This document shows, in pieces, positions 8,279 through 16,057 of a stretch of DNA of 17,330 bases. The translations under genes were made by a program, and so were the position numbers. Positions within the stretch are counted from its first letter, which is position 1. Every line of letters begins with the position of its first letter. This DNA is from a virus (Duplodnaviria > Heunggongvirae > Uroviricota > Caudoviricetes), in IMG/VR virus record IMGVR_UViG_3300026382_000013, positions 1 to 17,330 of that record; one strand, given 5' to 3'. The notes under the pieces are model-generated. The model did not search any database. It saw only the letters and a list, made by a program, of their open reading frames with translations, and was not told where the DNA came from.

Positions 8279-8298
8279 ACCTTCTATTTTATATGGTA
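8279..8298 (+). promoter_or_regulatory. Conserved motif copy 1 (candidate phage-RNAP promoter)
   Basis: ACCTTCTATTTTATATGGTA; GG at 8295-8296, 67 nt before the ATG at 8362. Confidence 0.7.
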
Positions 8299-8361
8299 GT
8301 ACTTAGTACTATATACTTGTAAGTCCTGAACCTTTATGGCAGGCATTGTAAGGAGTTAGTT

Positions 8362-8628
8362 ATGGGTTTAAGAATAGTTAAAAAGGTAGACCTTTTAGTA
8401 GACACCACTGGTTATGTTAACCAGTATGGTGTGGCGAGCAATAACATAGGAGTGTACTCACACATTCTTGTGAGTCAAGACCTTGTAGTTCTAAAAAAAC
8501 GATATGTAGCATACTATGAGAAGCGGACTACAGGTAAGTGGCTGACAAGAAATAGTACTTACGACGCAGTGGCACAGCTACAAGAATTAAAAGTGGGAGA
8601 TGTAGTTCCTAAGGAGCTACTAGCCTAA
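8362..8628 (+). CDS. Hypothetical protein (88 aa)
   Basis: AAGGAG SD before the ATG; first gene after motif copy 1. Confidence 0.75.
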   Translation: MGLRIVKKVDLLVDTTGYVNQYGVASNNIGVYSHILVSQDLVVLKKRYVAYYEKRTTGKWLTRNSTYDAVAQLQELKVGDVVPKELLA

Positions 8629-8711
8629 ACATAAGACCTAATCAAGTCTATAAACTGATTGCACTTTAACTATACAAATAGTGCATCGGCTTAACAGAGC
8701 TTATCTGTATT

Positions 8712-8741
8712 CTAACTATGTATAGTAGTTAGTATTTTTTT
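8712..8741 (+). terminator. Putative intrinsic terminator
   Basis: CTAACTA-N7-TAGTTAG stem followed by TA and T7. The stem is AT-rich, so weak. Confidence 0.45.
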
Positions 8742-8764
8742 ACACGGGGAACAAAGCACGAAGT

Positions 8765-8784
8765 ACCTTTTACTTAATGTGGTA
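8765..8784 (+). promoter_or_regulatory. Conserved motif copy 2
   Basis: ACCTTTTACTTAATGTGGTA, preceded by AAGT as in copy 1; GG 35 nt before the ATG at 8816. Confidence 0.65.
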
Positions 8785-8815
8785 ACCTACATATCTTATT
8801 TACAAGGAGTAAGTC

Positions 8816-8941
8816 ATGTCAGTACAATTCATAAGTCCTAATGGACAACAAGTATGTATCAATGTACCAACATCACAAGTTGCAGACAGGCTAGCAGACA
8901 TTATGCTAGCTAACTGTACAGTAATTAAAGTATCAGCATAG
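8816..8941 (+). CDS. Small protein, 41 aa (MSVQFISPNGQQVCINVPTSQVADRLADIMLANCTVIKVSA)
   Basis: Not in the track. AAGGAG SD at 8804-8809; directly downstream of motif copy 2. Confidence 0.7.
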   Translation: MSVQFISPNGQQVCINVPTSQVADRLADIMLANCTVIKVSA

Positions 8942-8992
8942 TCATAAAGCTTGACCATTCAATACCACACCTAGTGTGAAGAAGGAAGTACC

Positions 8993-9301
8993 ATGGTAAG
9001 AACAATAGATAGTAGCATTAAAGCAACAGCAGGTGATGCAGTTCACCAAACTATAGCAATAGCTATGGTGAGAAGAGGTGTGAAAGCCTCAGAAGTTATA
9101 GAAACCCTTAAAGCTTACAATTATATAGTAAACATTAAGGGAGTACTATATAAAGTACAGGCTACTAGTGTGGCTTCAATAGTCACAGGTATAGAAATAG
9201 CTATCTCAGTGCCTAAAGGTAAAGTAGCAGACCTTCATCCAATAGACAATGGTGTAGAAGCACCACAGTCTGCTAACACTCCTCTAGTTATTGAGGAGTA
9301 A
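8993..9301 (+). CDS. Hypothetical protein (102 aa)
   Basis: GAAGGA SD upstream; converges on the ParB-like gene. Confidence 0.75.
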   Translation: MVRTIDSSIKATAGDAVHQTIAIAMVRRGVKASEVIETLKAYNYIVNIKGVLYKVQATSVASIVTGIEIAISVPKGKVADLHPIDNGVEAPQSANTPLVIEE

Positions 9302-9331
9302 CTAGCTTAGCCTTAAACTTAGCCTAATCGT

Positions 9332-10054
9332 TTATTGAGGAGTAGCAGTCTTAATAGCTCCATATAGCATAGAGCTTAACTTCTCAAGCATAGCCAACCC
9401 AAACTCCGACTGTAGCTCTTGTACTTTAGTCTTCAGTGTATTCAACTCATCATCACTAAATAAATTAGTTGCAACACATTGTGACTCACTAAGTATATCA
9501 GCTTCTCTAGATTTAAAATGATTGTAGACACTTAGTAAACTATCTGATAGTAATGGCTTACTAGTAGTACCTATGTTCACTTTACCACCGTTAAACATAT
9601 GGTCCATAATAGCTTTAGAAACTATAGCATCTAGTTTCTTTGCTCTACTTAACATAAGTTTATTAGTTCCATACCTAGCACATACCACTTCTTGAGATTC
9701 TTTAGCACCACTAGCTCTAAGTCTATCATACTCATGTAGAGCATAGATAGCCTTTTGTGTAGGTGTTTGATGTCTTCTAGTCTCATGACTGGCAACAAGC
9801 TGTCTTACTTCTTCTATAGGTGTAGAAGGATTTAAGTGTATAGCTTTTATACTAACACTCTGTAATTCTCTCATAGCTAACACTCTATGTCTACCATCAA
9901 CTACTTTAGCTCTATACAGTTTAATAGGTTCTAGCTGACCATTCTCTGCAATATCAGTTTTTAAAGCCTCAAATTGCTCATCAGTCATCTTAGGAGTACT
10001 AAGAGCTAACTCATGTATTTCAATATCTTTAAGTTTAATTTCAGTTACAACCAT
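9332..10054 (-). CDS. ParB/Sulfiredoxin N-terminal domain protein with probable HTH
   Basis: 240 aa. LKTDIAENGQLEPI...VVDGRHRVLA contains the GxxRxxA CTP-binding motif, then RRHQTPTQKA and a helix-turn-helix-like QEVVCARYGTNKLMLSRAKKL. AGAGG SD. It is the only credible minus-strand gene in the right arm. Confidence 0.85.
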   Translation of the reverse strand: MVVTEIKLKDIEIHELALSTPKMTDEQFEALKTDIAENGQLEPIKLYRAKVVDGRHRVLAMRELQSVSIKAIHLNPSTPIEEVRQLVASHETRRHQTPTQKAIYALHEYDRLRASGAKESQEVVCARYGTNKLMLSRAKKLDAIVSKAIMDHMFNGGKVNIGTTSKPLLSDSLLSVYNHFKSREADILSESQCVATNLFSDDELNTLKTKVQELQSEFGLAMLEKLSSMLYGAIKTATPQ

Positions 10055-10083
10055 TCTTACACCTCTTTAGTTAATGTATTAGT

Positions 10084-10112
10084 ATTATACATCGTTTACT
10101 AACATATGTCAA
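10084..10112 (-). promoter_or_regulatory. Perfect consensus sigma70 promoter of the ParB-like gene
   Basis: The minus strand reads TTGACA-tatgttagtaaacgatg (17 nt)-TATAAT, about 30 nt upstream of the ATG. Confidence 0.85.
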
Positions 10113-10123
10113 GTGGAGGCATT

Positions 10124-10161
10124 TAGTAAACTGTTTACTAAATTTAGTAAACAGTTTACTA
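10124..10161. repeat. 38-bp perfect palindrome built from two 17-bp dyads
   Basis: TAGTAAACTGTTTACTA-AATT-TAGTAAACAGTTTACTA. Checked base by base as self-complementary about 10142/10143. Confidence 0.95.
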
Positions 10162-10189
10162 TTTACTATTTACTATTTACTATTTACTA
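10155..10189 (+). repeat. Tandem heptamer (TTTACTA)x5
   Basis: Five exact copies; the first is the end of the palindrome. Confidence 0.95.
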
Positions 10190-10247
10190 TTTTGTTCTAA
10201 ACTACTATTAGGCGATACTTGTACAAAACTTCTATATACTTACTTAG

Positions 10248-10304
10248 ATAAGGTACACTTTTAGTACCCTTTCACACATCAATAAGGTACACTTTTGGTA
10301 CCCT
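10248..10304. repeat. Two 23-bp direct repeats with internal dyad GGTAC-N7-GTACC (operator-like)
   Basis: ATAAGGTACACTTTTAGTACCCT (10248-10270) and ATAAGGTACACTTTTGGTACCCT (10282-10304): 22/23 identical, 34-bp period. Confidence 0.9.
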
Positions 10305-10393
10305 ATCTTTTTAGTCAAGTTCCCTAATATTGGGCTCTATCGACTGTATTCCCTATTCTAGAATAGAGAGTACACTAATATCCCTTACTAATA

Positions 10394-10413
10394 ACCTCTT
10401 ATTCTATATGGTA
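10394..10413 (+). promoter_or_regulatory. Conserved motif copy 3
   Basis: ACCTCTTATTCTATATGGTA; GG 35 nt before the ATG at 10445; divergent from the ParB-gene promoter. Confidence 0.65.
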
Positions 10414-10444
10414 ATCAATCCAAATCTATTTAAAAGGAACAATC

Positions 10445-10516
10445 ATGTCATGTTTAATTATTGACGGTGTATTATTAACACCAGAAGAAACAGCACAATA
10501 CTTAGCTAACCGTTAA
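10445..10516 (+). CDS. Micropeptide, 23 aa (MSCLIIDGVLLTPEETAQYLANR)
   Basis: Not in the track. AAAGGA SD about 6 nt upstream; first ORF after motif copy 3. Confidence 0.5.
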   Translation: MSCLIIDGVLLTPEETAQYLANR

Positions 10517-10601
10517 GTATATGTAATCAGTCGTTAACATACTATAGTAGTAACAGTCTACTATTTAATACCTCAACTAATAATGAGAAGAAAGGGTCAG
10601 C

Positions 10602-10949
10602 ATGGCATCAATAATCAAAGACATAAAACAAGCAACAGCAAGCACATTGAGTGCGGGTGTTGCAGTAGTAACGAGCACAGCGGATATGATCACAACTGTA
10701 GCAGGAAGCACTACTGCAATTGTAGACCCAACTATTGGGATGGTCACAGATGTAGCTAGTGTTGGGAGATCTTACACTAGCACACTACTACTTGAGACTC
10801 AGGCAGACAGTAAGATATCTAATGCAATAGCACAGAGTAAACTAGAAGCATCTAAGACTTACTTAGAGTCTAAAGCAGGTAAAAGTAAACTAGCAGAGGC
10901 TAGTGAGAAGTATGTCCAAATGCAATTGGACGAGATGTTAGATTTCTAG
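10602..10949 (+). CDS. Hypothetical Thr/Ala/Ser-rich helical protein (115 aa)
   Basis: AAAGGG SD; open frame with phage-like codon usage. Confidence 0.75.
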   Translation: MASIIKDIKQATASTLSAGVAVVTSTADMITTVAGSTTAIVDPTIGMVTDVASVGRSYTSTLLLETQADSKISNAIAQSKLEASKTYLESKAGKSKLAEASEKYVQMQLDEMLDF

Positions 10950-11145
10950 CATCTCAAGTTGTTAGTAAGAGTGGGTAACTGCTCTGCTAACACTAAACTC
11001 TATTACACGATTAACAAAGAAAGCTAGAAGGCCTGCAACAAAGAATGTAGCATACTAGCTAATTCAGCTTGTACTATATTAGCTTCTTTACTAATAGTAT
11101 TAAAGTACTTATTTACTAAAGCTTGTTCATCTAGACTTAGTTCCA

Positions 11146-11166
11146 CTCTAGGCTCTAGGCTCTAGG
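11146..11166 (+). repeat. Tandem heptamer (CTCTAGG)x3
   Basis: Three exact copies inside the 750-bp non-coding gap. Confidence 0.85.
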
Positions 11167-11253
11167 TATTTTGACATCTAATACAGTATTCTCTGCTAGC
11201 CATCTTAGGATCGTTCCTAGACTATCAGTATAAAATAGATACTTTAGTACTAC

Positions 11254-11366
11254 TAAATTCTGGTCAATAATTAATAGTTACCGACCAGAGAAAAGATGGT
11301 CGGTCGACCAGAATTTAAAACTGATACCCTAATTTAGGGGTTTGCTAAAAAAGATGGTCGACCGAC
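11254..11366. repeat. Cluster of nested inverted and direct repeats built on GGTCG/CGACC
   Basis: TAAATTCTGGTC (11254-65) and GACCAGAATTTA (11306-17) are inverted. ACCGACCA-N9-TGGTCGGT spans 11280-11304. AAAAGATGGTCG is a direct repeat at 11291 and 11349. GGTCGACC occurs at 11302 and 11356. Confidence 0.85.
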
Positions 11367-11638
11367 TTACTTACTACAATAACTCTTTATATCCTATATA
11401 CTAATAGACAAACTGTGGATTTAATTAAACCTATCTCATGTTTTTCAAGACGATTTAGACAGGACTCCAGTCCTATTAAAATTAATTACAAGCGACAGCA
11501 CTGAAAAATAAAACACTTATTTAATTAATATAGAGTTCTCGATAGGTTATCTACCTTAATTAAATCTTAACTTAAATTTACATAACCCACTTATAACCCC
11601 AAACACTCATCCTACACTGTATTTATGGAAGCCTAACA

Positions 11639-11658
11639 ACCTTCTATTTAATATGGTA
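11639..11658 (+). promoter_or_regulatory. Conserved motif copy 4 (consensus-like)
   Basis: gcctaacaACCTTCTATTTAATATGGTA; GG 47 nt before the ATG at 11702. Confidence 0.7.
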
Positions 11659-11701
11659 TTACAACAACACTCAACACTAACTTATTTATAAAGGGAATAT
11701 A

Positions 11702-12154
11702 ATGCCTACAATAACAAAAATAGATGGCCTAGTACAAGACTCAAACACAATAGAAATTACTCTATCAGACGGTAAAGTAATTAAACAGTACCATAGGCAA
11801 GATTGCTGTGAATATGTAGCAGTACATCAAGTAGATGGTAATATCTCTAAACATATAGGAGCAAAGTACATAGAGTTACTTTGTAAATCTAGAAGAGCAC
11901 AAAACGATGAAGTGTCTGCAAGTGGTACATGGACATTCTACACATTAAAGACATCTAAAGGTTATTTAGACTGGAGATGGTTAGGTGAGTCTAATGGGTA
12001 CTATAGTGAAAATGTAACAACAGTAACTTTATACCCATTAGAACTAGCAAGAGATAACTCTATAGAATTAGTAGACATTACAGCATACAATTTTGATAAA
12101 GAAGACTACACATCTAAATCTCTATTCAAATGGAAACTATTAGGAAATATTTAG
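11702..12154 (+). CDS. Conserved phage hypothetical protein (HxQDCC...TWTFY...RWxGESNGYYSE family)
   Basis: 150 aa with YHRQDCCEYV, WTFYTLKTSKGYLDWRWLGESNGYYSENV, a motif set recalled from a widespread phage DUF (possibly DUF7448; unverified). Confidence 0.75.
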   Translation: MPTITKIDGLVQDSNTIEITLSDGKVIKQYHRQDCCEYVAVHQVDGNISKHIGAKYIELLCKSRRAQNDEVSASGTWTFYTLKTSKGYLDWRWLGESNGYYSENVTTVTLYPLELARDNSIELVDITAYNFDKEDYTSKSLFKWKLLGNI

Positions 12155-12230
12155 CAGGGACCATAAAGGTGATTTACTTACAGCTACTACTGAATCATTA
12201 TTTAAAAATAAACTACTTTAAAGCCTAATA

Positions 12231-12249
12231 ACCTTTTATTTAAATGGCA
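12231..12249 (+). promoter_or_regulatory. Conserved motif copy 5 (1-nt shorter spacer)
   Basis: gcctaataACCTTTTATTTAAATGGCA; GG 65 nt before the ATG at 12311. Confidence 0.6.
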
Positions 12250-12310
12250 GTGTGTACAACTGAAATTCGTTGTATATTTATACCTTACTAAAACATATGG
12301 AGATTTAAAA

Positions 12311-12955
12311 ATGGAAAATACAATCACAGCACAAGAAGCATTTAATGAAAAGCTTGAGGAAATTCGTAAAGAAAGAGCAATGGATCTTACAGCGAATAGA
12401 TTAAGATCTGAAGTAGCCATAAACGATGCACTACTTAGAGAATCAGTAGCAACTGTTACTGTAGTTCTTAAAGAGCTATACGAGTTCTTAGACTTAGAAC
12501 CAGAGAAGCTAGAGTCTTTCTTAAAGATGGCGAGAAGAAGTGAGTACGGTAGAGTACCAGAAATGTTAGCTAAGATAGCATCATTGTATACATGGCCAGG
12601 ATGTGATGTGCAAGACATTGCAGATACTCAAGAAGATATCTTAGACATCATCAATAAGTATACAGCAGTTCCAGTGACAGCAGACCTTCTTATGGATATT
12701 AAAGAGTCTAAAGGTTCTCATACATTCTTAAGTAATACAGATTACGAAGTTATAGATGCTATCGAACCTGCTTATGAAGAGTTTAAGTACTACATCTCTA
12801 CATTAGCTGATTACCTCAATCTTCCATATGTAGACATTAAACTATCTGAAGAGAAGTGGGAAAAGAACGAACACAAAGCTCTCAAAAGAGTAGCTAAAGA
12901 GCAAGAAGAAGCACAAAAAGCTTTAGAAGCTCATAATGCATTAGTTAGTGCATAG
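12311..12955 (+). CDS. Acidic helical hypothetical protein (214 aa) directly upstream of the RNAP
   Basis: GGAG SD; Glu-rich with a coiled-coil-like C-terminus; no family recognised. Confidence 0.8.
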   Translation: MENTITAQEAFNEKLEEIRKERAMDLTANRLRSEVAINDALLRESVATVTVVLKELYEFLDLEPEKLESFLKMARRSEYGRVPEMLAKIASLYTWPGCDVQDIADTQEDILDIINKYTAVPVTADLLMDIKESKGSHTFLSNTDYEVIDAIEPAYEEFKYYISTLADYLNLPYVDIKLSEEKWEKNEHKALKRVAKEQEEAQKALEAHNALVSA

Positions 12956-12977: not shown

Positions 12978-13003
12978 AACCAATTTATTTATAAGGACAA
13001 AGT

Positions 13004-14782
13004 ATGTTATATAGTTTACTAAACAAAGAGTTACCAGACAATACCAAAGTCTATATATCTTTTGAGTCAGTGGCAACAAAGCTACTAATAGACTCTATGG
13101 AGTATAGTTTCATTAATGGTTCTAACCAAGTATCAGTACCATTTTGGAGTGAAAAGATAGGTGCAAAGTTATTCACAGCTGTATCTTTTGCATTAGGTGA
13201 AGAAAAATGGATTAATGGTGTAGTTAAACCAAACTTCGCATACATAGAACTTAATGAGACTAAACTTGCTAAGTATATTGATACTACAAAGTATCGTAAA
13301 GATATGAGAATTAAGCTCAATACTATGAAATGTGTTAATAGTATTATGGATAGTAACCTCACTAAAACACCTAATAGCATCGAAGATACAGGATTAGTAA
13401 GAGATGGTTTTGCTAAGTGTGCTAGTATGAAGTTTCAATTAGATACAGTAGCTATGCTTAAGCACTATGAGTTAATTAAGTCTAACTTAGTTAAAGGTAT
13501 GACTAATGTTGCTAAGAAATACCCAGATGTCCTTATGGATGAAGCTAACTATAAAGCAATTTCAGAAGAAGTATTAGATTACTATCTATGTAACCCTAAA
13601 AAGTACTATAACCTTGAATCAAACATAAATGATATGAGAGGTAGAAGCATCTATAGTGGTATCCGTAAAGTAGGCAATATTATTGCTAACAAAGACATGA
13701 GAGCACTTATTATAGCTGATAAATCAGTATTTATACTAGATACTAATAAGAAAGCTTTAAATGATATCTACCTGTTCATTGCAGAATTAGTAGAAAGTAA
13801 AGCTAAGTCATGGAATGGTAAGATACTTAGTGGTATGGTATCTTATAAAAAGAAAAGATTACCTAATATGACAGCTAAAACACTACATGAGATTATATGG
13901 TTAGAAAGAATCTACGAAGCTTTAGACCAACTATTTATAGATGGTAGTATTATGTGGAACATACCTTTAGAAATGGATGCTACAGCTTCTATAGCTCAGA
14001 TTGTTGGAGTACTTACTAATGATCGTAGATTACTAGCTAAAACTAATGTAATAGAACCAGAAACTCTTGAAGACTTTTGGTATGTAAAAGGTGTAAACAA
14101 CCGTGATGGTATAAAAGCAATAGGTACACCAGTAGGTTATGGTTCTAGTGCTTCATTCACTAAACTTCTTAAAGCTAAAAAGGAAACTCTTACAAAAGAA
14201 GAGATGAAAGCTATACGAAAAGAATTTAAAGATGGTGCATTTGCAGTTATTAAAGCATTCAAAGATTTAACAGTTAAACATGCTAATATTACTACACCAA
14301 CATTTACTACAGATACTTACTTTGAGCAGTATACGACTACTGTTAATAAGCATAAAGTAGTAGGTGCTAACCTTACAGCATATAGTACATATTGTAGCAA
14401 GACTAAGACTATTAAAATTATTATGAACCATACTACTATTACAGTACCTGATTATGATAGATTTAGAACTTACCATGCTACAGGTCTTATACATAATTTA
14501 GATTCGTTTATCATGGATAGTACTATGAAAACTATCCAAGATAGAGGAGAATGGTGTATAGCTATTCATGATGCAGGGTTAGTACTTCCAGGTACTGCTA
14601 TGAGAGAAGCTTACATAGCTCAATTAGAGAACTTAAGAACTAATAGACATAAAGTACTTAATAGTTACTTACAGTCTATAGGAGCAACAGATAAAGCTTC
14701 TAAAATAGCTTATACTAAATTATTAGCTACTGTAGAACCACTTGATAATTCTATTTCATTCTCTATTTCAGCACTTAAATAA
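13004..14782 (+). CDS. Compact single-chain T7/N4-RNAPII-family DNA-directed RNA polymerase
   Basis: 592 aa. DX2GR motif DMRGRSIY (D210; T7 DWRGRVY). Motif A LEMDATASIAQ (D325; T7 D537). Motif B RDGIKAIGTPVGYG with exact R-x3-K-x7-YG spacing (R367/K371/Y379). GLIHNLD (H497; T7 NFVHSQD). Motif C AIHDAG (D523; T7 LIHDSF). AAGGA SD. Confidence 0.9.
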   Translation: MLYSLLNKELPDNTKVYISFESVATKLLIDSMEYSFINGSNQVSVPFWSEKIGAKLFTAVSFALGEEKWINGVVKPNFAYIELNETKLAKYIDTTKYRKDMRIKLNTMKCVNSIMDSNLTKTPNSIEDTGLVRDGFAKCASMKFQLDTVAMLKHYELIKSNLVKGMTNVAKKYPDVLMDEANYKAISEEVLDYYLCNPKKYYNLESNINDMRGRSIYSGIRKVGNIIANKDMRALIIADKSVFILDTNKKALNDIYLFIAELVESKAKSWNGKILSGMVSYKKKRLPNMTAKTLHEIIWLERIYEALDQLFIDGSIMWNIPLEMDATASIAQIVGVLTNDRRLLAKTNVIEPETLEDFWYVKGVNNRDGIKAIGTPVGYGSSASFTKLLKAKKETLTKEEMKAIRKEFKDGAFAVIKAFKDLTVKHANITTPTFTTDTYFEQYTTTVNKHKVVGANLTAYSTYCSKTKTIKIIMNHTTITVPDYDRFRTYHATGLIHNLDSFIMDSTMKTIQDRGEWCIAIHDAGLVLPGTAMREAYIAQLENLRTNRHKVLNSYLQSIGATDKASKIAYTKLLATVEPLDNSISFSISALK

Positions 14783-14824
14783 AGATGAGGCCTTTTGGTC
14801 TTGTCTTTACTTATTTTTTTTTTT
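14780..14824 (+). terminator. Intrinsic terminator after the RNAP gene
   Basis: TAAAGATGAGGCC-TTTT-GGTCTTGTCTTTA forms a 13-bp stem including three G-U pairs, followed by CTTA and T11. Confidence 0.7.
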
Positions 14825-15158: not shown

Positions 15159-15309
15159 TTTTTTTAAAGATATAGGTACAACATTAGCTGTATCCTTAGG
15201 TCTTATTATATTAGGAGCTATAGCTATAGTGACTCAAGCTATTATTTTTTTACTTATACCAATAGGTATATACTATGCTATAAAATTTTTACGTGAAGTT
15301 ACAAGTTAG
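15151..15309 (+). CDS. Small membrane protein (52 aa, MFNFFKDIGTTLAVSLGLIILGAIAIVTQAIIFLLIPIGIYYAIKFLREVTS)
   Basis: The track starts at 15037, but the ATG at 15151 has an AAGGAG SD and overlaps the previous stop by 8 nt. Confidence 0.75.
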   Translation: MFNFFKDIGTTLAVSLGLIILGAIAIVTQAIIFLLIPIGIYYAIKFLREVTS

Positions 15310-16057
15310 TGAGGATATAGCTCCATATTATTTTGGGGTTATACTACTATTCGGTTGGATTAGCCCTATATTAATTGGAGTTGTATTTATTACATTTCTA
15401 TTCCATATTTTTTATAGGCTATCTAAAGAAGATTTTACAGAGTACTACGTACCTTCTAAAGTAACAAAGGTATCCATAAACATAGAAGAAAAACAAGCTT
15501 ACATGAAATCTAAAAAGTGGTATATTACACGAATTGCTGTGCTTAAACGAGATAATTACGAATGTTATATATGTTCTAAGCAAGTACCCTTAGAGGTACA
15601 CCATCTTACATATAAGCATATTTACAATGAGCCATTAGAAGATTTAGTATCGTTATGTAGACGTTGTCATCAAGCACAACATAATCACTATGGCTATAAA
15701 TATACAACAAATTATATAAAATTAGTAGGGGACAAATTTATGACTGAACGATTTAAACAATTGCACCATCTAATAGGTAAAACTATCACTATGGAAGGTA
15801 TCATACAAAAATACGGTATGAATGTTGGAACAAAGGAAAGAACTGTATGTTTTAAAGATGTACTTATAGATGGTATACATATAGACCACATATGGGTAAA
15901 TTATTCACTTTATTACCCACAAGGTACAAAGCAAACTGTTAAGGCTAAAGTATTACTTAGAAATAGACCCAATGACAATGTATTTAATACTGAACCTAAA
16001 AAAGATATACAAATAATTATTAAGGATAAACATGATAATCACAAACATCAAAACTAA
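15293..16057 (+). CDS. HNH endonuclease with N-terminal transmembrane segment and a separate C-terminal domain
   Basis: YMKSKKW...VLKRDNYECYICSKQVPLEVHHLTY...EPLEDLVSLCRRCHQAQH is a zinc-binding CxxC-HH-CxxCH HNH fold. Residues about 12-42 are hydrophobic. The GTG start is uncertain. Confidence 0.8.
   Translation: MKLQVSEDIAPYYFGVILLFGWISPILIGVVFITFLFHIFYRLSKEDFTEYYVPSKVTKVSINIEEKQAYMKSKKWYITRIAVLKRDNYECYICSKQVPLEVHHLTYKHIYNEPLEDLVSLCRRCHQAQHNHYGYKYTTNYIKLVGDKFMTERFKQLHHLIGKTITMEGIIQKYGMNVGTKERTVCFKDVLIDGIHIDHIWVNYSLYYPQGTKQTVKAKVLLRNRPNDNVFNTEPKKDIQIIIKDKHDNHKHQN

Follow-up and report, generated by a model that had tools for sequence, protein, structure and literature searches.

The window analysed here, 17,330 nucleotides long, forms the start of an IMG/VR contig of 81,330 bp (IMGVR_UViG_3300026382_000013), classed as linear and estimated by CheckV to be 78% complete, and it carries at 13004..14782 (+) a gene, P0001, whose 592-aa product is, by its predicted structure, a single-chain RNA polymerase (RNAP) of the T7 family. 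The closest characterised relative of this enzyme is the RNAPII of phage N4. From the open reading frame (ORF), which is open throughout, its translation, the structural model and a profile match to the N4 subunit gp16, we assign P0001 as the RNAPII equivalent of its phage. Our favoured explanation, which we hold to be probable, is that P0001 is an active, DNA-dependent, single-subunit T7-family RNAP that serves as the non-virion RNAPII of an N4-like phage and is made as one chain, not two.

The initial annotation had placed all catalytic motifs in this one ORF, with positions and spacings that we compared against T7 gene 1 and N4 genes 15 and 16, translated from public records. Motifs were placed by regular expression, which confirmed every number exactly, and were located by alignment as well. 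On the + strand, the DxxGR block (D210-M-R-G-R214) lies at 13631..13645 (T7 D421-R425; N4 gp15 D236-R240), the catalytic aspartate of motif A, D325, at 13976..13978 (T7 D537; N4 gp16 D75), motif B (K371-G380) at 14114..14143 (T7 K631, Y639, G640; N4 gp16 K138), H497 within the word GLIHNLD at 14492..14494 (T7 H784), and motif C (H522-D523) at 14567..14572 (T7 H811-D812; N4 gp16 H341-D342). The motif B set is present with its ribose-selecting tyrosine (R367, K371, Y379 and G380, plus H497, against R627, K631, Y639, G640 and H784 in T7 RNAP), and Y379 corresponds to T7's ribonucleotide-selecting residue. Two spacings are nearly those of T7 RNAP (DxxGR to motif A, 115 versus 116 residues; motif C to the C-terminus, 69 versus 71), whereas motif A to the motif B lysine is 46 versus 94 residues and the stretch from the N-terminus to DxxGR is 209 versus 420. 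The protein was also said to be smaller than the summed N4 subunits, which holds at 592 aa against 673 aa (269 for gp15 and 404 for gp16).

In an alignment of 36 homologues the residues of the catalytic motifs are invariant, including D210, R212 and R214, while G213 is at least 90% conserved; in a 106-sequence alignment the catalytic residues share columns with their counterparts in T7 RNAP and N4 RNAPII. Since this invariance is kept across a family with pairwise identities of ~30-57%, it indicates that polymerase function has been under purifying selection. With a full set of catalytic elements, P0001 would be expected to synthesise RNA on a template by the standard two-metal mechanism.

An AlphaFold2 model of P0001 built on the family alignment reached a predicted local distance difference test (pLDDT) score of 94.8 and a predicted template modelling (pTM) score of 0.90, and by Foldseek and VIA-align it is a Pol A-type right hand. 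Foldseek matched it to T7 RNAP and to mitochondrial RNAPs at E ~1e-12 (2e-12 for T7 RNAP and POLRMT). By VIA-align the predicted right-hand fold superposes on T7 RNAP with thumb and N-terminal core included (Z 26.7, 447 residues, model 105-591 on T7 267-882), on yeast mitochondrial RNAP over the whole model (Z 24.9, 540 residues), on N4 RNAPII gp16 (Z 18.8, 308 residues, model 249-592 on gp16 4-404) and on N4 mini-vRNAP (Z 15-16). Because the gp16 superposition begins at model residue 249, the N4 subunit junction falls at a poorly conserved linker around residues 238-248. The equivalent codons, ~237-249 as delimited by the superposition and by split relatives, lie at 13712..13750 (+) and are continuous here; the same linker is interrupted in classical Schitoviridae and in the clade around the Alteromonas phage AD45, with split relatives breaking at 237|249.

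The model also bears out the earlier proposal that a beta-rich segment before GLIHNLD sits at the position of the T7 specificity loop. Strands 433-437, 442-446, 450-464 and 469-482 directly precede the helix bearing GLIHNLD, and because GLIHNLD aligns with the T7 word NFVHSQD (H784), the long beta-hairpin of residues 450-482 (codons 14351..14449, +) occupies the specificity-loop position. The net charge of region 428-492 is +3 in P0001, with a family median of +2, compared with +4 in T7 RNAP and -4 to +2 in classical N4-type RNAPII; for the whole protein it is +15 versus -13 in N4 RNAPII.

Profile searches tie the family to N4 RNAPII. Against the PDB the family profile had a sole match, N4 RNAPII gp16 (6DT7 chain B, E 3.9e-5), and hhalign against an alignment of seven RNAP2 proteins gave 97.6% probability (E 3e-12). 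In the PHROG search, P0001 was tiled by three PHROGs of unknown function and matched weakly the RNAP families phrog_2051 (E 2.8e-4, centred on motif A) and phrog_414, with no match to the RNAP1 family phrog_2166. A basal family member, P0173, matches annotated Autographiviridae RNAP genes by tblastn. Single-sequence phmmer of P0001 against the PDB and megablast of the window against phage genomes returned no match.

P0001 is not a one-off and belongs to a large, essentially unannotated family. An exhaustive search recovered 232 clusters at 50% identity, 199 of them at E <= 1e-10, mostly single chains of 547-668 aa, and the members looked up by name either have none or are listed as hypothetical protein. 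Homologue alignments begin at P0001 residue 1. Among 50,697 phage records the only relatives were in the Alteromonas AD45 podoviruses, with genomes of 100-104 kb, which are thus the sole cultured phages there to carry a member. Some relatives of ~580 aa already have an automatic RNA_pol domain label: in the ESM Atlas, PF00940 is marked on 18% of P0001's cluster and on 98% of a neighbouring 579-aa viral cluster, and the latter indicates that database pipelines have reached the family's edge. In a literature search of incomplete coverage we found neither a paper describing this polymerase family nor a described single-chain T7-family RNAP of <600 aa. In one member contig (IMGVR_UViG_3300045135_002242, 95,789 bp; loci L039 and L044) the polymerase gene stands at both ends, so the junction of this assembly, which is either circularly permuted or terminally redundant, falls at the gene.

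The genomic context of P0001 is that of an N4-like phage, as its virion RNAP among other genes indicates. In the window, a leftward arm carries tail fibres, a virion protein and the large terminase, and a rightward arm from 8.3 kb carries small early genes and then the polymerase gene. Elsewhere on the contig, a homologue of the N4 virion RNAP (phrog_2206) is encoded by two leftward ORFs of 2393 and 1442 aa (E 2e-91 and 5e-107; 50869-55197 and 56282-63463, -), between which stands a 360-aa ORF of no known family. All ten of the long IMG/VR contigs with a family member (73-123 kb) also carry a virion RNAP, mostly as two ORFs and in some as one ORF of 3334-3643 aa. The 81-kb contig holds no second RNAPII-type gene, and P0001 is its only non-virion phage RNAP gene. 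We take the phage to be N4-like, roughly 100 kb in size and from hydrothermal-vent metagenomes. DNA nearly identical to 13004-14782 occurs in three hydrothermal-vent metagenome runs from 2018, one of them probably the source sample; two others contain ~63% of the sampled words.

In N4, the injected virion RNAP transcribes early genes, including those of RNAPII, and RNAPII then reads middle genes (PMC4496689). By analogy, the virion RNAP encoded at 50.9-63.5 kb of the contig would be injected and would transcribe the early arm (8.3-14.8 kb) from five promoter-like motifs to a terminator just past the polymerase gene, after which the newly made 592-aa enzyme would transcribe the downstream replication (middle) genes. 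Within the enzyme, D325 and D523 would bind the metals of the two-metal mechanism, R367, K371 and Y379 on the equivalent of the O-helix would bind the incoming nucleoside triphosphate and select its ribose, and H497 and the DxxGR motif would hold the RNA-DNA hybrid. What we observed are the predicted fold, the motifs, the family, the context and the phylogeny; the catalytic activity, the timing, the templates and any need for a cofactor are inferred.

The five motifs bear on the alternative that comes closest to competing with this explanation, namely that P0001 is a self-sufficient, promoter-specific T7-style polymerase that recognises the 20-bp motif ACCTTCTATTT(A/T)ATATGGTA, so that gene and motif would together make a ready compact orthogonal system. 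A motif search found five copies, ending ..ATATGG, starting at 8279, 8765, 10394, 11639 and 12231 (+; span 8279..12250). Four of them match with at most 3 mismatches, where chance would give 0.03, and the copy at 12231 is a weaker fifth. The motif is thus strongly non-random, and it is strand-specific and intergenic; its end, ..TATGG, resembles T7-type promoters that start transcripts with G. A self-sufficient enzyme would also fit the long hairpin at the specificity-loop position with a net charge of +3, near the +4 of T7 and unlike classical RNAPII, and the failure to find gp1/gp2 cofactor homologues on the ~78% complete contig. However, all copies lie 5' of the polymerase gene, with none elsewhere in the 81-kb contig, including the remaining 68 kb, so another reader would be needed first; the phage has its own T7-family virion RNAP, and in N4 the corresponding enzyme does that job (PMC4496689); the genes past the polymerase carry neither this motif nor another shared one; and the gene, at 31% GC, has a lysine-rich composition that would also yield a positive charge. 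We therefore judge this alternative decidedly unlikely. Being solely upstream of the polymerase gene in a phage that encodes an injected-type virion RNAP, the motif is more likely a promoter expressing that gene, and by analogy with N4 the five copies are most likely early promoters driving the polymerase gene. Its reader is in our estimate probably the virion RNAP, with P0001 a possible but clearly less likely reader and any other polymerase a slim prospect.

The proposal in the initial annotation that the candidate promoter in the window belongs to P0001 thus does not survive the placement of its copies, the presence of a virion RNAP and the lack of the motif at downstream genes. Nor does the genome layout lend support to the accompanying idea of a compact orthogonal transcription system, which the question of cofactors leaves as a hope. 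Simple k-mer counts returned only AT-rich words belonging to ribosome-binding contexts. One of these, TTATTTA(C/T)AA(A/G)G, typically TTTATTTATAAGGA, abuts the start codons of four genes, the polymerase gene among them (8796, 11682, 12985 and 14853, +), and TTTATTTATAAGGA is probably a translation-initiation context, not a promoter.

The split or unsplit state of the gene varies across the family. Among 39 IMG/VR loci, the frame is continuous in ~18 and interrupted at the N4 junction, 237|249, in about a dozen; other breaks lie near motif A (289-334), at 496/497 (the block of the T7 H784 equivalent) and at 547. Where the pieces were inspected, endonuclease genes stand between them (GIY-YIG in AD45, NUMOD/HNH-like in L011), and likewise in the Vibrio schitoviruses D284 (L017) and 1.188.A endonuclease genes lie between polymerase pieces. 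The repeated breaks at catalytic blocks look like gene fission driven by homing endonucleases. Catalytic-block breaks were recorded in AD45-P1 (L001) and in loci L010, L011, L024 and L053-L057, with GIY-YIG, HNH, NUMOD or unknown ORFs between the pieces; in L010 the halves are cut at 328|333, with a 330-nt gap and a 241-aa ORF between them. Not every short homologue beginning near residue 249 is a genuine split; P0085 was rejected as one, being a contig-end fragment whose frame stays open upstream.

Trees were built with IQ-TREE (quick search, LG+C20) from 106 and 138 rows of ~590 columns, comprising 94-126 family rows, seven classical Schitoviridae RNAPII and five Autographiviridae RNAPs, with the T7-like rows as outgroup. 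The family forms one clade on a long stem, with 100% support in the Shimodaira-Hasegawa-like approximate likelihood ratio test (SH-aLRT), beside a separate clade of classical N4-type RNAPII (98-99% support) and a third of Autographiviridae RNAPs; P0001 thus belongs to a clade of its own next to the classical enzymes. Neither the earliest-branching lineages of the family nor the 29-row clade that includes P0001 (95%) contain split forms. Breaks at 237 are confined to a single nested clade around AD45 (98%) and one additional locus, and mapping of the split state gave 3-4 changes with an unsplit ancestor. In an approximately unbiased (AU) test on a 40-row subset, a single clade of all enzymes split at the N4 site, classical and family together, was rejected (delta lnL 90.5, p-AU 0.00115), and a single origin of the split within the family was not (p 0.157).

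Basal unsplit lineages, nested splits and the rejection of a shared split origin together favour an ancestral over a fused state. The initial annotation had left both open for the single chain; of the two, the trees favour ancestral and not fused. On the simplest reading of these sequences the single chain would be the retained ancestral form, with the same linker broken at least twice independently, and P0001 would still have the unsplit form that gave rise to the gp15/gp16 heterodimer of N4. That the single chain is instead a secondary fusion, and that the ancestor shared with classical RNAPII was already split into gp15-like and gp16-like parts, appears highly improbable to us. Classical RNAPII and the AD45 clade do break at the same variable linker (~237-249), and locus L055 is continuous at the site inside the split clade, which may reflect re-joining or a sequencing or frame artefact, but deep family branches, the T7-like outgroup, virion RNAPs and mitochondrial RNAPs are all single chains, a split ancestor needs many more changes than the 3-4 for an unsplit one, and the clade uniting all enzymes split at the site was rejected in the AU test.

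It is barely credible that P0001 is not the main transcriptase but a specialised or degenerate Pol A-family enzyme, for instance one that synthesises primers for replication, or a structural relic that has lost activity: the activity of family members is read from sequence, and priming of replication is a further role in which T7 RNAP and N4 RNAPII are implicated, but the catalytic and ribose-selecting residues are all invariant at the family's level of divergence, the contig encodes no other phage RNAP apart from the virion enzyme, and the gene co-occurs with a virion RNAP in 10/10 long contigs. Multiple roles of N4 RNAPs have been discussed (PMC4496689).

Several points weigh against the assignment of P0001 as an active, unsplit, N4-type RNAPII. 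Family members are known from their genes and a predicted fold, and a gene may be missing from a contig that is ~78% complete. Pfam PF00940 (RNA_pol) has no match even at E = 1 in the protein or the six-frame genome, which the PF00940 labels on related ESM Atlas clusters attribute to model sensitivity. The N-terminal 245 residues gave no significant hhalign match to N4 gp15/RNAP1 profiles (E 0.21); the DxxGR blocks of this half and of RNAP1/gp15 fall in register, and it is on this register and the predicted fold that the proposed homology of the N-terminal half is based. In the phylogeny, a tree of three major groups is not by itself proof that classical RNAPII, and not the T7-like enzymes, is the family's sister group, the clade used for the AU test was chosen after inspection of the tree, and the tree search was quick, not careful. 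No shared middle-promoter motif was found in 17 downstream intergenic gaps, where words of 9-11 nt were not above shuffled sequence; this is weak negative evidence, consistent with short AT-rich, cofactor-assisted promoters as in N4. Homologues of the N4 cofactors gp1 and gp2 (phrog_4099 and phrog_5020) were not found on the contig at its ~78% completeness. With neither a gp1/gp2 homologue nor a middle-promoter motif, the N4-like division of labour is an analogy. Cofactors that bind single-stranded DNA (ssDNA), such as N4 gp2 and LUZ7 Drc, are non-homologous between genera (PMC7145618), so the lack of gp1/gp2 homologues says nothing on cofactor dependence.

A conserved neighbour directly 5' of the polymerase gene is a candidate cofactor or partner by its position, and this suggestion is speculative. 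It is a mostly helical protein of 214 aa with no known family or fold (12311..12955, +), identified by comparison of loci and found at the same place in six related loci, and its model has a pLDDT of 89. The complex prediction with the polymerase scored 0.16 against a mark of 0.32, which speaks neither for nor against binding. The idea that this protein is a detached T7-like N-terminal domain was unsupported, with no PDB match by Foldseek at E <= 0.001. Another early protein, of 150 aa (11702-12154, +), matches Pfam DUF7448 (E 3e-19) and phrog_2650, the function of neither being known; as a gp2 counterpart it was set aside, having no similarity to N4 gp2.

Immediately around the polymerase gene, an AT-rich leader with a Shine-Dalgarno-like AAGGA lies at 12985..13003 (+), 8 nt ahead of the ATG, and a terminator-like hairpin of 13 pairs followed by a long T run overlaps the stop codon (14780..14819, +) and is probably the end of the early transcription unit containing the gene. 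A free-standing HNH endonuclease gene (15293-16057, +; phrog_119, E 7e-14) lies two genes past the intact polymerase gene and might give rise to breaks like those found in relatives. Within the early arm, a lone leftward ParB-like gene (9332-10054, -) is faced by a perfect TTGACA-17-TATAAT promoter (10084-10112, -), which suggests a host with a sigma-70-type consensus, and a perfect 38-bp palindrome of two 19-nt arms (10124-10161) lies in the repeat-dense gap beside this gene.

These results suggest that, in a widespread N4-like clade (contigs of ~70-123 kb), the job of RNAPII is apparently done by a smaller single chain, in a family that annotation has largely missed, with Pfam silent, PHROGs of unknown function and the AD45 pieces listed as hypothetical. 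A 2015 review stated that in phages a virion RNAP is always accompanied by a heterodimeric RNAPII (PMC4496689); this rule fails for P0001's clade. Within the family the gene has also been broken repeatedly, both at one permissive linker and, beside homing-endonuclease genes, at catalytic motifs. It has been proposed that splitting of the polymerase created a need for ssDNA-binding cofactors (PMC7145618), and because the family has natural unsplit, two-piece and three-piece versions, this proposal becomes directly testable. If its promoter were identified and it proved cofactor-free, a ~590-aa polymerase would be attractive for size-limited constructs. The broadest claim that could be made, that the family is the smallest natural architecture of T7-family RNAPs, recognises promoters by itself through a positive specificity loop, preserves the ancestral N4 form, offers a usable orthogonal polymerase and shows in its repeated gene breaks how the heterodimer originated, we consider unlikely as a whole. 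We see the value of the family as moderate for phage transcription and polymerase evolution and as speculative for biotechnology.

Among known systems, the mitochondrial RNAPs (yeast Rpo41, human POLRMT) give the best full-length structural alignments to P0001 (540-554 residues over 1-592, Z 20-25) and, like N4 RNAPII, are factor-dependent, but unlike P0001 they are eukaryotic enzymes of 900-1200 aa with pentatricopeptide repeat (PPR) and N-terminal extensions, at 10-13% identity. N4 mini-vRNAP (the gp50 polymerase domain) and the virion RNAP of P0001's phage share the T7-family fold, and the virion RNAP gene is in P0001's genome; the virion RNAP is a ~1100-aa domain in a ~3500-aa injected virion protein, whereas P0001 is a free 592-aa product that would be made from the early genes. 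With T7 RNAP (883 aa), P0001 shares the single chain, the right-hand fold, the motifs and the hairpin position, but it is 291 aa shorter, with a sequence identity of 12-15% and shorter finger insertions. The T7 promoter-binding and refolding domain takes up ~266 residues before the aligned core, versus ~104 residues in P0001, which thus does without ~160 N-terminal and ~130 finger-insertion residues and keeps the thumb, the N-terminal core and the hairpin; compared with T7 RNAP, autonomous promoter recognition by P0001 is conjectural.

The Alteromonas phages vB_AmaP_AD45-P1 to P4 (Efbeekayvirus) carry members of P0001's own family in gp044/gp046/gp048, at ~31% identity and all annotated as hypothetical. 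Like P0001's phage they are N4-like, of ~100 kb, with a virion RNAP in two ORFs (PMC3821669), but their enzyme is in three genes, cut at ~237|253 and 496|497 with an 84-aa ORF and a GIY-YIG endonuclease gene between the pieces, whereas P0001 is unsplit. The AD45 paper treats the two-piece virion RNAP and does not recognise gp044/gp046/gp048 as an RNAP (PMC3821669).

The loop of N4 RNAPII was judged too acidic for DNA binding (Molodtsov and Murakami 2018, as cited in PMC7145618). The specificity-loop region of P0001, in contrast, is positive where that of N4 RNAPII is negative, and P0001 stands in a separate, long-stemmed clade. N4 RNAPII (gp15 of 269 aa and gp16 of 404 aa; PDB 6DT7/6DT8/6DTA) is presented as the minimal T7-family polymerase. 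Like P0001, it is a minimal T7-family RNAP encoded among early genes, with a giant virion RNAP alongside; it has the same catalytic motifs, and its gp16 superposes on model residues 249-592. P0001 is more compact in the spacing from motif A to motif B (46 versus 63 residues in N4) and in the stretch from the N-terminus to DxxGR (209 versus 235), and where N4 RNAPII is a heterodimer of 673 aa, P0001 runs across the junction as one polypeptide of 592 aa, 81 aa shorter.

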